64,000 nt of DNA from Syntrophales bacterium (lineage in GTDB: Bacteria; Desulfobacterota; Syntrophia; Syntrophales; UBA6807), in the NCBI GenBank assembly GCA_040767195.1, contig JAXGPA010000002.1:160001-224000 (forward strand). The letters run 5' to 3'. The notes below the pieces were generated by a model, which was given only the letters and a program-made list of their open reading frames with translations, searched no databases and had not been told where the DNA came from. Positions 15,560-19,855 of the stretch are shown piece by piece (the first letter of the stretch is position 1; every line of letters begins with the position of its first letter). A program made the translations under genes and the position numbers.

Positions 15560-16351
15560 TCACATGACGCCCTTGTACCAACCGCCGTCGATCTGTATGG
15601 CGGCACCGGTGATGTAACCCGCCTGTTCCGAGGCCAGAAAGGTCACCAGGGCCGCGAAGTCCTCTGGGGTGCCGAGGCGCTTCATGGGAATGGCCTCCTC
15701 CCATTTTCCGATCACCGCCTCGGGCGTCGTGTTTTCCCGTTCCGCGATCGTTTTCGCCAGGTTCCGCACCCGGTCCGTCAGCGTGTACCCCGGGCAGACG
15801 CTGTTCACAGTGACGTTGAAGGGGGCGAGCTCATTGGAAAGGGTCTTGGCAAAGCCGATCACCCCGGACCGGATCGTGTTGGAGAGCATAAGCCCGTCGA
15901 TGGGCTGCTTCACCGATATGGAGGTCATGTTGATGATCCGGCCCCATTTCTTTTCCTTCATCACGGGAACGGCTTCCCGGGTCATGACGATGGTGCTCAG
16001 GAGATTGAGGCGGAAGCCGTATTCCCAGAGCTTGTCGTCGATGTCGAGAAACCCCACGGAAGGCGGCCCCCCCGCGTTGTTGACGAGGATGTCCACGGTC
16101 CCGAAGTGTTCCAGGGCTTTCCTCACAAACCCTTTTGCCTGCCCGGGGTCGGAAACGTCCGCCGGGACGGCGATCGCCTCGGCGCCCGTCTTCTCGCGGA
16201 CTTCCTCGGCTGCCGCGGCGAGATAGGCGTCGTCGAGGGACCCGATGGCGACCCGCGCCCCCTCACGGCCCATCTCCAGGGCCACCGCTTTCCCCAGCCC
16301 CATGCTCCCCCCCGACACGAGGACCACTTTTCCTTTGAGACCTAAATCCAT
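15560..16351 (-). CDS. Short-chain dehydrogenase/reductase (FabG-like SDR)
   Basis: SGGSMGLG, LVNNAGGP, atypical SNxxR active-site motif, VCPGYTLT and IDGG. Confidence 0.88.
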   Translation of the reverse strand: MDLGLKGKVVLVSGGSMGLGKAVALEMGREGARVAIGSLDDAYLAAAAEEVREKTGAEAIAVPADVSDPGQAKGFVRKALEHFGTVDILVNNAGGPPSVGFLDIDDKLWEYGFRLNLLSTIVMTREAVPVMKEKKWGRIINMTSISVKQPIDGLMLSNTIRSGVIGFAKTLSNELAPFNVTVNSVCPGYTLTDRVRNLAKTIAERENTTPEAVIGKWEEAIPMKRLGTPEDFAALVTFLASEQAGYITGAAIQIDGGWYKGVM

Positions 16352-16549
16352 GCGTACCTCCCAGAATATCCCTGTTTTATGGGTTCTCCCAAACCATCGA
16401 AGGGCGGTCCCGGAAAGGTCCGACCTCCGGAAACTGAAAGCCGCCCCGCCCGCGAACGCCCGGCGGGGGCGAACCCGCTGCGCGGCGAAACAGGATATCA
16501 GCTGTAACAGATCTTTGGGGACCCGTCAATGACCGGCCCGTTTTTTCAA

Positions 16550-16578
16550 TTGACAGCTCCCCCATTTTTCAGTATAGT
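16550..16578 (+). promoter_or_regulatory. Sigma70 promoter of the 2-oxoacid:ferredoxin oxidoreductase operon
   Basis: TTGACA-17 nt-TATAGT. Confidence 0.7.
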
Positions 16579-16638
16579 TTGCTCGGTTTTTGTTCCCACC
16601 CCCGCCTGATGGGGATTTTATTGAGGAATACGGATAAT

Positions 16639-16743
16639 ATGGCAGCCATGAGAGGAACCTTCACCCATCGACGTCCCGGTCTCCTGTTGTGCCTCGCTCT
16701 TATTTTGGACATACCTCCGTGGCCCGCCATAGACCCTTGTTGA
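16639..16743 (+). CDS. Leu-rich attenuator leader peptide (MAAMRGTFTHRRPGLLLCLALILDIPPWPAIDPC)
   Basis: 34 codons with GAGGA upstream. Six Leu plus one Ile in nine consecutive codons (16681-16707). The stop lies 19 nt before a terminator. Confidence 0.7.
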   Translation: MAAMRGTFTHRRPGLLLCLALILDIPPWPAIDPC

Positions 16744-16762
16744 AAAAAGGAATAGCGGTGAT

Positions 16763-16798
16763 AAAGGCCATGGCTCAAACCATGGCCTTTTTGTTTTT
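16763..16798 (+). terminator. Attenuator terminator within the operon leader
   Basis: AAAGGCCATGG-CTCAAA-CCATGGCCTTT-TTGTTTTT, located between the promoter and the first gene. Its 5' arm can alternatively pair with CCGTGGCC at 16717-16724. Confidence 0.75.
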
Positions 16799-16870
16799 CC
16801 AGGACGGAAAAAAAGGGCAGCGAAACTTCCGGGCCTTTACGGGTCCGGCAATTTGAATCGGGAGAGAAAC

Positions 16871-17473
16871 ATGAAAGAAATCCTGTGGCATGGAAGGGGC
16901 GGCCAGGGCGTTGTCCTTGCGGCGCAGATTCTCGCGGAGGCCGCCTATATCCAGGGGTACGGGGGTGTCATGTCGGCCCCGACCTTCGGCCCGGAGAGAC
17001 GGGGGGCGCCCGTCGTCGCTTCCACGCGGATCTCCCGGGAGGCCATCCGCACGGTCGCCCAGATCGAGAAGGGGGACGTCGCCGTGGTTCTCGACGCCTC
17101 TCTCCTCGGAATCGTGGACATTCTCGGGCGCCTGAAAGAGGGGGGCGCCCTCATCGTCAACACGCCCCTGCCCCCGGAGGCTCTCGGGATCGACGGGTCC
17201 TACGACGTGGCCACCGTCAACGCGACGGACATAGCCGTTTCGAACCGCCTCATCCTGGGGGGCCTGCCCGTGGTGAACACGCCCATGCTGGGGGCTTTCA
17301 GCCGGGTCACGGGCCTCGTCACCCTGGAAAACATCGAAAAGGGTCTCAAGCGGAAAATGCCCGCCGACGCCGCCCGGACCAACTTCGCCGTCGTTCAGTC
17401 CGCCTGCGAACAAACCGTCATCCAGCCAAAGGAAGAGAAAACCCATGGAACAGAAGAGCCTGAAGAAAGATAG
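16871..17473 (+). CDS. 2-oxoacid:ferredoxin oxidoreductase gamma subunit (PorC/VorC family)
   Basis: WHGRGGQGVV, FGPERRGAPV and VNTPMLGA. ATG at 16871 after GGAGAG. Confidence 0.9.
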   Translation: MKEILWHGRGGQGVVLAAQILAEAAYIQGYGGVMSAPTFGPERRGAPVVASTRISREAIRTVAQIEKGDVAVVLDASLLGIVDILGRLKEGGALIVNTPLPPEALGIDGSYDVATVNATDIAVSNRLILGGLPVVNTPMLGAFSRVTGLVTLENIEKGLKRKMPADAARTNFAVVQSACEQTVIQPKEEKTHGTEEPEER

Positions 17474-17750
17474 GAACGTTTCCGCCCTCTGCGTGCCCGC
17501 AAAGGGAGAGGCGGGGCGGACCGGCGACTGGCGGGACCTCAAGCCCGTCATCGATCACACGAAATGCATCCCCTCGGTCAAGAACAGGCCCGCCTGCTAC
17601 CTGTGCTGGCTCTACTGCCCCGAGGGCGTCGTCAAAATGACCATTCCCGTCGAAATCGACATGGATTACTGCAAGGGCTGCGGCATCTGCGCCGAGGAGT
17701 GTCCGCCCAACGCGATCCGGATGGTCAGGGAGGGGGAAAGCGATGGCTGA
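17445..17750 (+). CDS. 2-oxoacid:ferredoxin oxidoreductase delta (ferredoxin) subunit
   Basis: TGDWR...CYLCWLYCPEG...YCKGCGICAEECP. Confidence 0.9.
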   Translation: MEQKSLKKDRNVSALCVPAKGEAGRTGDWRDLKPVIDHTKCIPSVKNRPACYLCWLYCPEGVVKMTIPVEIDMDYCKGCGICAEECPPNAIRMVREGESDG

Positions 17751-18966
17751 CGTCAGGATTCTCACGGGAAACGAGGCCGCCGCCATGGGGGTCAAGCTCT
17801 GCCGCCCCGGTGTCGTGGCCGCCTATCCGATCACACCCCAGTCCCAGCTCGCCGAGATCCTCTCCCGCTACGTCGAGGGGGGGGAAATGCGGGCGGAATA
17901 TGTCCGCGTGGAAGGGGAGCATTCGGCCCTCACGGTGTGCATCTCGGCCTCCACCGTCGGCGCCCGGACCTTCACGGCCACCAGCTCCAACGGCCTCCTG
18001 TACATGCACGAACAGCTTCACTGGGCGGCCGGATCCCGGCTTCCCGTGGTCATGTGCGTCGTCAACCGGGGCGTGGGCGCCCCCTGGTCCATCTTCAACG
18101 ACCAGCAGGATTCCCTGGCCCAGCGGGACACGGGGTGGATCCAGTTTTACTGCCGTAACAACCAGGAAATCATCGACACCCTCATCCAGGCCTACCGGAT
18201 CGCCGAGTCCCTGTACATCCCCGTCATGGTGTGTTACGACGGGTTCGTTCTGTCCCACACCATGATGCCCGTGGACATCCCCGACGGGGACATGGTCCGG
18301 GGATTTCTCCCCCCTTACAAAGCCCACACGATCCTGTCGCCCGAGGCGCCCCGGACGATAAACTCGGTCCTGTTCCCCTGGCGGAGGCCCGATCCCGAGG
18401 GGGTTCTCCGGGACGGTTACATGGAAATGCGCTATAAGCTCGAGGCCGCCATGAAAAAGGCCCTGCCGGCGATCCAGGAGGCGAACGACGACTTCGCCCG
18501 GATCTTCGGGCGGGACCACGGCGGGCTCATCTGGACCTACCGGAGCGAAGGCGCGGAATTGCTCTTCTCCGGAATCGGCTCCATCGCCAACGAGGCCACG
18601 GTGGCCGCCGACCTTCTCCGGGACGAGGGAATCCCCGCCGGCGTTCTCGGTGTCCGGGTGTACCGGCCTTTCCCCCGGCAGCGCGTCATCGAGGCGACGC
18701 AGGGAGCCCGGGCCGTCATGGTTCTCCAGAAAGGTACAAGCTACGGATACGAGGGGTGCCTCACGTCGGACTTCAAGGCGTCTCTCTACGAATCAACACT
18801 CCGGGTTCCCGTGGTGGACGTGGTGGCGGGCCTGGGGGGCCGGGACGTGAAAGCCCGGGAAATCGCCGACGCGGGAAAACGGGCCTGGAAGGAACTCGAG
18901 GAGGGAAAACTGAAAAACCACTCCCTCTGGCTCAACTGTTACACGGGAGAAGACGATGCAGAATAA
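17743..18966 (+). CDS. 2-oxoacid:ferredoxin oxidoreductase alpha subunit
   Basis: GNEAAA, AYPITPQS, EGEHSA, FTATSSNGL and DGFVLSHT. Confidence 0.92.
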   Translation: MADVRILTGNEAAAMGVKLCRPGVVAAYPITPQSQLAEILSRYVEGGEMRAEYVRVEGEHSALTVCISASTVGARTFTATSSNGLLYMHEQLHWAAGSRLPVVMCVVNRGVGAPWSIFNDQQDSLAQRDTGWIQFYCRNNQEIIDTLIQAYRIAESLYIPVMVCYDGFVLSHTMMPVDIPDGDMVRGFLPPYKAHTILSPEAPRTINSVLFPWRRPDPEGVLRDGYMEMRYKLEAAMKKALPAIQEANDDFARIFGRDHGGLIWTYRSEGAELLFSGIGSIANEATVAADLLRDEGIPAGVLGVRVYRPFPRQRVIEATQGARAVMVLQKGTSYGYEGCLTSDFKASLYESTLRVPVVDVVAGLGGRDVKAREIADAGKRAWKELEEGKLKNHSLWLNCYTGEDDAE

Positions 18967-19855
18967 CATCTTCAAGATCAACGAAACGGAATACATCCTG
19001 CCGGGAAGCCGGGCCTGCCAGGGCTGCGGCCTGACCCTCGCCTACCGCTACATGCTGAAGGCCCTCCGGGAAAACACCGTCCTCACCATCCCCGCGAGCT
19101 GTCTTTGCGTCCTCCACGGGCTCTACCCCATCACGCCCGTGACGGTGCCCTGCCTGAACACGACCTTCGCCAGCACCGCCGCTTCCGCCTCGGGGATCGC
19201 CGCGGGACTCGCGGCCATGAACAAGTCCGACATCACCGTCGTGGCCATGGCCGGGGACGGCTCCACCTACGACATGGGCATCCAGGCGCTCAGCGGCGCC
19301 GCCGAGCGGAACACGGACTTTATTTACGTCTGTTACGACAACGAGGGGTACATGAACACGGGGACCCAGCGGTCCAGCGCCACGCCCATGGGGGCCCTCA
19401 CGTCGACCACGCCGATTCTCACCAAGGAGCACACGAAAAAAGACTTCGTCCGGATCATGGAAGCCCACGAGCTTCCCTACCTGGCCACGACCTCCCCGTC
19501 GTACCCCATCGACCTCTACGACAAGTTCGTCAAGGCCAAGAGAATCAAGGGAACACGGTACATGCACATCTACTCGCCCTGCCCCCCGGGGTGGCTCTTC
19601 AACACGAAGGACACCATCCGCATCGGCCAGCTCGCCGTGGAGACGGGGATCGTCGTTCTCTTCGAAATAGAGGACGGGAAGTTCCGTTTTACCGGACGAA
19701 GCAAGACCCTGGCGGAACGGGGCAAGAGGCAGCCCGTGGTCAACTACGTTTCCCGCCAGGGCCGCTTCCGCAGGATGAGCATCGAACAGCTGAACCGGCT
19801 CCAGGCCTGGGTGGATTCCCGCTGGGCCGATTATCTCGACCGGGCCGAGAGCTGA
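18956..19855 (+). CDS. 2-oxoacid:ferredoxin oxidoreductase beta (TPP-binding) subunit, VorB-like
   Basis: ACQGCG, IPASC, GDG...DNEGYMNTG TPP motif and SPCPPGW. Confidence 0.92.
   Translation: MQNNIFKINETEYILPGSRACQGCGLTLAYRYMLKALRENTVLTIPASCLCVLHGLYPITPVTVPCLNTTFASTAASASGIAAGLAAMNKSDITVVAMAGDGSTYDMGIQALSGAAERNTDFIYVCYDNEGYMNTGTQRSSATPMGALTSTTPILTKEHTKKDFVRIMEAHELPYLATTSPSYPIDLYDKFVKAKRIKGTRYMHIYSPCPPGWLFNTKDTIRIGQLAVETGIVVLFEIEDGKFRFTGRSKTLAERGKRQPVVNYVSRQGRFRRMSIEQLNRLQAWVDSRWADYLDRAES

Follow-up and report, generated by a model that had tools for sequence, protein, structure and literature searches.

A predicted leucine attenuator upstream of a 2-oxoacid:ferredoxin oxidoreductase operon in Syntrophales-type Desulfobacterota suggests a biosynthetic role for the enzyme

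The window analyzed here is a 64,000-nt stretch from the genome of a Syntrophales bacterium (the source genome, G000), and all five-digit positions are window coordinates. Its forward strand carries the genes for a gamma subunit (PorC-like, 16871 to 17473; TIGR02175, 169 bits, cut-off 81), a delta subunit (PorD-like ferredoxin, 17445 to 17750; TIGR02179, 90 bits, cut-off 60), an alpha subunit (17743 to 18966; found by profile search and motifs, with no equivalog cut-off reached), and a TPP-binding beta subunit (18956 to 19855; the VorB-like PRK11864, 370 bits, cut-off 405; PorB, 333 bits). Judged by sequence, the operon encodes a four-subunit 2-oxoacid:ferredoxin oxidoreductase (OFOR) of the pyruvate/2-ketoisovalerate subfamily, and homologues and named contigs point to the Syntrophales-type Desulfobacterota. 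A divergent short-chain dehydrogenase (SDR) gene (15560 to 16351, reverse strand), which is often linked to the operon, lies outside attenuator control here. The SDR is 70 to 88% identical across the order and adjoins the operon in at least 14 related genomes; in two Chloroflexota loci, a version with 46 to 49% identity follows the sister operon. Structure comparison matched it to unnamed SDR structures alone.

We know of no way to read the substrate of an OFOR from its sequence. The curated HMM cut-offs were not reached for the VOR equivalogs (score/cut-off: alpha, 348/646; beta, 370/405; delta, 81/166) or for the POR equivalogs (alpha, 422/550; beta, 333/405; gamma, 161/225), and the archaeal PorA model (422) outscored VorA (348) on the alpha subunit. 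The TPP- and carboxylate-binding motifs of solved OFORs, namely, the Thr and Arg of alpha and the Asn of beta, are conserved. At alpha position 115, Trp replaces the Ile of the solved pyruvate enzyme 9BT4, in the column of Leu121 of 1B0P, which we take to line the substrate pocket, and a beta loop carries Ala in place of the Glu of 9BT4. The Trp loop was invariant in the clade (120/120 homologues), but many OFORs that are distant and leaderless share it. The close orthologues grouped as one clade (49 rows; SH-aLRT, 99) in a quick tree of 77 gamma-subunit rows, from which 35 distant rows were left out. G000 has five further POR_N-family genes, VorB- and IorA-type genes above cut-off among them, so the housekeeping function need not fall to the attenuated OFOR. 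In the Syntrophales-type loci, the operon was found linked to no acyl-CoA ligase or CoA-transferase gene; in three actinobacterial sister-group loci, an ORF that resembles an acyl-CoA synthetase by eye lies ahead of the operon. The Syntrophobacter-type loci L099 to L101, L103, L107, and L111 contain gamma and delta genes without adjacent alpha and beta genes.

The original prediction placed a leucine-sensing attenuator in front of the first gene. Its sigma70-type promoter, TTGACA-17-TATAGT (16550 to 16578, forward strand), was recovered by a promoter scan as the sole promoter-like site over 1.2 kb (16000 to 17200; 11/12 matches; shuffle mean, 0.3), and a TTGAC hexamer was seen by eye at a similar upstream distance in most orthologous leaders. 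Transcription probably starts near 16585. The 34-codon leader ORF (uORF; 16639 to 16743, stop codon at 16741) was confirmed, and the corresponding ORF of the congener G001 likewise has 34 codons. A Shine-Dalgarno-like GAGGA (16623 to 16627) precedes the ATG at a spacing of 11 nt, which is long and weak. As predicted, codons 15 to 23 (16681 to 16707) include six Leu codons and one Ile codon. The antiterminator 5' arm (segment 2; 16717 to 16728) is followed by an intrinsic terminator (segments 3 and 4 and a T run; 16763 to 16798), which was identified by terminator scan, folding, and covariation and whose segment 3 is common to the antiterminator. Here too the original prediction held, with an 11-bp stem (16763 to 16790) and a T run to 16798 ahead of the first gene at 16871. 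MFE folding alone predicts a protector helix with its 5' arm at 16638 to 16655 and its partner at about 16712 to 16733, which would hide the antiterminator arm in untranslated RNA. A second terminator-like hairpin (16600 to 16614) had no evident counterpart in the congener and was omitted from the model.

With the genome Leu frequency of 0.102, a particular stretch of nine codons would contain at least six Leu codons with a probability of 7e-5, or about 0.002 over 26 windows. An in-frame ATG was present in all 26 full orthologous leaders, and three core codon columns encoded Leu in 24/26, 24/26, and 26/26 of them. The two codons between these columns were Leu in 2/26 leaders each, with freely varying amino acids. 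Within the core columns, TTG, CTG, CTT, CTC, and TTA were exchanged between leaders, first-position TTG/CTG changes included. The best alternative frame had at most three Leu codons per nine in 26/26 OFOR leaders. Outside the Leu run, the leader peptide showed no conservation, and one leader (L016) had just three Leu codons per nine. Two details of the predicted sensor were revised: Ile, which had been counted as part of it, was found at that codon in 3/26 orthologous leaders and is not conserved, and of the two codons described as uncommon, TTG alone is so, with 3.7% of Leu codons against 18.9% for CTT. ARAGORN found 39 tRNAs in G000, including Leu tRNAs with GAG, CAG, TAA, and TAG anticodons; a Leu tRNA with a CAA anticodon was not found by this program in the draft, which may be due to an assembly gap.

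The terminator folded with a z score of -3.3, and 0/200 shuffles were equally stable. The predicted antiterminator pairing of 16717 to 16724 with 16766 to 16773 was the MFE structure of 16710 to 16776 (-21.5 kcal/mol; z = -2.7; 4/200 shuffles). Of its inner pairings, CCTT/AAGG was as originally described, whereas the other helix was formed by 16725 to 16728 with 16757 to 16760, in a different register. The antiterminator helix is family-wide, with a shifted register in the family of G000. Across leaders, the terminator was 98.9% paired and the antiterminator 88.8%, each with 13 cells showing double changes; these counts were reached by 0/500 shuffles, and slid controls were 15 to 61% paired. 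Both stems contain compensatory pairs, which the original prediction had proposed to look for, and in the antiterminator the covariation was modest (score matched by 24/500 shuffles, pairs with double changes by 91/500), all of these statistics coming from kin sequences that are not independent.

The switch was then modeled at successive ribosome positions. When RNA upstream of the ribosome was barred from pairing and the transcript ended ahead of segment 4, P(2:3), the probability of the segment 2:3 pairing, was 0.87 to 1.00 with the A site on codons 15 to 23 and at most 0.01 from codon 26. Folding with the ribosome-covered region masked, a check suggested with the original prediction, thus gave the switch when the upstream RNA was blocked; a block of the footprint only did not reproduce it, with P(2:3) of about 0 at the Leu codons and the 5' end of the uORF paired across the ribosome. 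On the full-length leader, the terminator dominated at every ribosome position (P = 0.999), and the switch therefore needs co-transcriptional kinetics. In family-wide folding, the drop exceeded 0.3 in 25/26 OFOR leaders and 25/29 leuA leaders, a measure that separates real from shuffled leaders weakly (0.87 versus 0.65). Metatranscriptome contigs from three digester runs of one study covered the first gene from 16811, 16851, and 16834; in one run, a 164-nt contig spanned 16600 to 16763, and such assembled contigs carry neither levels nor transcript ends. The contigs of these three metatranscriptomes gave no coverage of 16505 to 16586.

Orthologues (E < 1e-50) were found in 39 of the 61 related genomes searched, all of which are drafts. 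The leader lay ahead of 33 of the 39 orthologues, as expected from the original prediction; it was absent at four, and two were not assessable. Of 30 fetched loci, 26 had the full leader and one was without it; in another, a contig start left just the 3' half, and in two, less than 100 nt of upstream sequence was available. Of the remaining nine orthologues, six had a covariance-model match directly upstream (uORFs were read in four) and three did not. In 80 named loci, the leader was present in 11 of the 12 closest (9/10 when two duplicates of earlier loci are set aside) and in 0/68 others. All four leaderless orthologues were in leuA-bearing genomes, and the leader was kept in 19/19 leuA-less genomes with an assessable orthologue locus. 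Overall, it is kept across about 20 families.

Of 35 leuA loci above cut-off, 30 were fetched, and a homologous leader precedes leuA in 29 of these. A covariance model built from 55 leaders matched 141/151 genomes of the class, once or twice each, in a tally that includes the training genomes and counts matches irrespective of the downstream gene. In G000, a DNA similarity search found a single leader copy and no second, and the covariance model gave one strong copy, with related leaders appearing as weak terminator-end matches. In an unrooted quick tree, the leuA and OFOR leaders fell into mostly separate lineages (3 label changes versus 18.5 shuffled), and the OFOR leader is, as far as sequence comparison can tell, a paralogue of the leuA leader within the same order. 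An Rfam scan of the window at gathering score matched a tRNA alone, with no Leu_leader, T-box, or riboswitch family. At L199 (G058:C60:1851-2001), a Leu leader is followed by a 498-codon ORF that is unrelated to leuA or OFOR genes and mobile-element-like by eye, perhaps an insertion between leader and gene.

Conservation, synonymous Leu changes, two covarying stems, switch geometry, and homology to the leuA leader all support the leu-type ribosome-stalling layout that was originally proposed. We regard it as very probable that the leader is a classical ribosome-mediated Leu transcription attenuator sensing charged tRNA-Leu. The structure and geometry of the switch were obtained computationally, and the following regulation would be expected from them. 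RNA polymerase would start near 16585, and a ribosome would translate the uORF. Under Leu shortage, this ribosome would stall at codons 15 to 23 and leave segment 2 free to capture segment 3 before segment 4 is made, resulting in read-through into the operon. With ample Leu, it would instead cover segment 2 and reach the stop codon at 16741, the 3:4 hairpin would form, and transcription would end near 16795. Leucine starvation would thus switch on the oxidoreductase, as the original prediction held, because the stall geometry is modeled to free segment 2.

In the draft genome of G000 (98.8% complete, 13 contigs), neither family nor protein searches found leuA, cimA, leuB, or leuC/D; this genome retains ilvBNCD and ilvE (ilvE above cut-off). 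A leuB-like gene was 1 bit below the actinobacterial-type leuB model (392 versus 393) and far below TIGR00169; it passed the tartrate dehydrogenase cut-off (552 versus 470) and was read as tartrate dehydrogenase. A yeast-type leuA, considered as a hidden leuA, was found in 0/61 genomes. Leader and enzyme are likewise retained in the relatives G010 (100% complete), G051 (97%), and G031 (89%), none of which has leuA, leuB, or leuC. In 60 genomes (G058 was dropped for its partial matches), 18 genomes with the orthologue had leuA and 21 did not, and 19 genomes without the orthologue had leuA and 2 did not; the Fisher p value of this complementarity (0.0008) is overstated owing to kinship. The leuA-positive scores of G006 and G014 come from fragments at contig ends, and in G020 a second leader at the edge of a contig may point to a leuA that was left unassembled. 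Both leuA and the orthologue are missing from G034 (99% complete) and G007 (89%). Most leuA-less genomes retain a cimA-like gene and leuC, and in these a promiscuous CimA could make leucine. For isoleucine, no threonine deaminase was found among three PALP-family matches in G000, nor were cimA or leuBCD found as a route to its precursor 2-oxobutyrate; another of the six OFORs of G000 could carboxylate propionyl-CoA or 2-methylbutyryl-CoA.

A gene induced on Leu shortage in a cell with no route from 2-oxoisovalerate to 2-oxoisocaproate is best explained as a producer of 2-oxoisocaproate. Here, the enzyme probably carboxylates isovaleryl-CoA reductively to this product: isovaleryl-CoA, CO2, and reduced ferredoxin would yield 2-oxoisocaproate, which we infer to be transaminated to leucine by IlvE. 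The enzyme would supplement leuABCD where they are present and replace them where they have been lost, and its isovaleryl-CoA would probably come from environmental isovalerate. Given this genome content, the enzyme itself would be a leucine-biosynthetic step, so the rule that such leaders control biosynthetic genes probably holds, which suggests that the target of the leader is a biosynthetic step here and not an anomaly. Taken as one statement, a Leu attenuator on an operon that makes 2-oxoisocaproate from isovaleryl-CoA is in our judgment reasonably likely.

A complete leucine route from acetyl-CoA that bypasses leuABCD was also considered for genomes such as G000, with the HMG-CoA/methylglutaconyl-CoA/isovaleryl-CoA pathway reversed and followed by ferredoxin-driven CO2 fixation, for which the attenuated enzyme would be the last step. 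Lyase, hydratase, carboxyltransferase, and acyl-CoA dehydrogenase genes are present in G000. An isovalerate- or leucine-degradation-like cluster (G000:C1:138674-144056, reverse strand) encodes a carboxyltransferase, an enoyl-CoA hydratase, and an HMG-CoA lyase, as well as a 396-aa HMGL-like protein with no NCBIfam match at 1e-40; the genome has ten acyl-CoA dehydrogenase genes. Across genomes, an HMG-CoA lyase homologue tends to be present together with the orthologue (32/7/6/15), which also counts toward the isovaleryl-CoA carboxylation proposed above. Such a route is quite doubtful and is not required, because G010 and G031 keep the oxidoreductase with no HMG-CoA lyase match and digesters contain isovalerate, as given in part of PMC7382037. 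A passage of the same source reports uncultured Syntrophales as isovalerate degraders (PMC7382037).

Other roles for the enzyme have to be weighed against isovaleryl-CoA carboxylation. The attenuator could be real and the enzyme could feed the LeuA route, with pyruvate from acetyl-CoA or 2-oxoisovalerate from isobutyryl-CoA, or serve as a general synthase of branched-chain 2-oxoacids that is not confined to the leucine branch. OFORs commonly accept a wide range of substrates, leuA occurs in 18 of the 39 orthologue genomes, and the alpha subunit scores best on PorA_Arch and the beta subunit on a VorB-like model, all of which would fit. However, induction would be futile in G000, G010, G051, and G031, which keep the leader without leuA/B/C; separate leaders on ilvBN carry the Val and Ile runs, and the OFOR sensor is Leu, not Ile or Val; and the substrate-loop residues, invariant in the clade, are not those of the pyruvate enzyme 9BT4. 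We therefore consider a supply of LeuA precursors unlikely. Very unlikely is a catabolic enzyme that converts 2-oxoisocaproate to isovaleryl-CoA behind a leader that acts in the other sense or senses a general translation slowdown. The degradation-like cluster of G000 and the co-occurrence of orthologue and HMG-CoA lyase speak for catabolism, but the geometry gives read-through on Leu shortage, which is the wrong sign for it, and leuA is under the same leader family.

The leader might also have no selected role in Leu control, either as a relic or passenger left by duplication of a promoter-leader cassette or as a gene for a small hydrophobic peptide with its own terminator. We hold this to be very unlikely, given its retention over about 20 families, in which Leu codons change synonymously and base-pair changes are compensated, the mostly separate lineages of leuA and OFOR leaders (3 label changes versus 18.5 shuffled), and a peptide that is not conserved outside the Leu run; the leaderless 4/37 assessable orthologues, the three Leu codons in nine of L016, and the weak Shine-Dalgarno sequence are the points on its side.

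Seven other leaders in G000 have codon runs that fit the gene behind each, a pattern that bears on the proposed role of the OFOR. Trp-run leaders precede trpE and a trpB-like gene, and a Trp/Phe/Tyr leader precedes DAHP synthase (G000:C6:47477-53800 and C1:620780-622399); a Phe/Tyr/Trp version of the scaffold also lies before DAHP-synthase-like genes in G007, G011, G012, and G039. Of the tandem ilvBN units (G000:C8:9869-17900, reverse strand), the first is behind a Val-run leader and the second, with ilvC and ilvD, behind an Ile-run leader. An Ala-run leader ORF and terminator with the same scaffold (G000:C1:916492-916720, reverse strand; L247 to L249) precede a gene (C1:915190-916416) whose best model is alanine-transaminase-like, below cut-off. 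Among 31 genomes searched, this leader was present in 4/4 having the alanine-transaminase-like gene, and to our knowledge an Ala-sensing attenuator has not been described. A Phe-run leader and terminator (G000:C7:132332-139300, reverse strand) precede genes for an ABC substrate-binding protein, an ATPase, an acyl-CoA ligase-like protein, and permeases, possibly for aryl-acid salvage toward phenylalanine; some 4 kb beyond this cluster, the opposite strand carries an IOR alpha gene. A loose genome-wide uORF-plus-hairpin scan gave about 55 mostly spurious matches and failed to recover the Trp, aromatic, Val, and Ala leaders, and therefore cannot serve as a census. G000 also encodes a 770-aa cysteine synthase/cysteinyl-tRNA synthetase fusion (C1:791106-793418, reverse strand), both parts above cut-off.

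The mechanism proposed here is textbook, and its target, an OFOR operon, is new within the literature searched. As in the Escherichia coli leuL attenuator, which we take to be Rfam RF00512 (Leu_leader), and the Streptococcus leuA leaders, a short uORF with clustered Leu codons is combined with mutually exclusive antiterminator and terminator structures, and read-through is expected when Leu is short. Unlike in leuL, the Leu codons alternate with free codons, and the target is a ferredoxin oxidoreductase rather than leuABCD. The leuL mechanism and the Leu-rich Streptococcus leuA leaders are described in part of PMC5314783. The closest relative is the Syntrophales-type leuA leader, which is homologous in sequence and has the same terminator arm and Leu-run spacing, whereas the OFOR leader forms a separate paralogous lineage with a shifted antiterminator register in the family of G000, a genome that has lost leuA and retains the OFOR copy of the leader alone. 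The enzyme shares the gamma-delta-alpha-beta gene order and the Thr/Arg (alpha) and Asn (beta) motifs with the archaeal-type POR/VOR enzymes (9BT4; Thermococcales PRK08366/PRK11864) but stays below every equivalog cut-off, differs in loop residues, and has a Leu attenuator in front.

Amino-acid T-boxes before clostridial oxidoreductase genes are reportedly listed in a T-box survey. The literature searched, a scope that ends short of older subscription-journal attenuator surveys, yielded no account of an OFOR operon under a Leu attenuator. In a terminator survey (PMC2965389, Table S8), the rows covered (9/9 for "ferredoxin oxidoreductase," 12/37 for Syntrophus, and 11/94 for Syntrophobacter) include unannotated premature-terminator candidates before OFOR genes, namely, BT_0330 vorA, Moth_1924, Dde_1639, Sfum_0115, and iorA of Geobacter and Azoarcus. 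These resemble the present case in that an OFOR gene carries a terminator in its 5' region; by their table entries, they belong to other lineages and carry no amino-acid-sensor annotation.

Isovalerate carboxylation to leucine has been known for decades from labelling work in anaerobes. Conversion of isovalerate and CO2 to 2-oxoisocaproate and leucine is cited for rumen bacteria and methanogens in sections of PMC7356843 and PMC10658910. By comparison, the present candidate gene set is named by its regulation and by leuABCD loss and belongs to syntrophic Desulfobacterota. Regulation and gene loss thus name a candidate enzyme clade for isovalerate carboxylation, and the question becomes directly testable. 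In addition, a single attenuator scaffold reused via sensor-codon swaps means that leader peptides may be used as function labels for unannotated enzymes. If the proposed role is true, the leuABCD-less Syntrophales would be isovalerate dependent and not true leucine auxotrophs, which would bear on the cultivation of digester syntrophs and on cross-feeding models.
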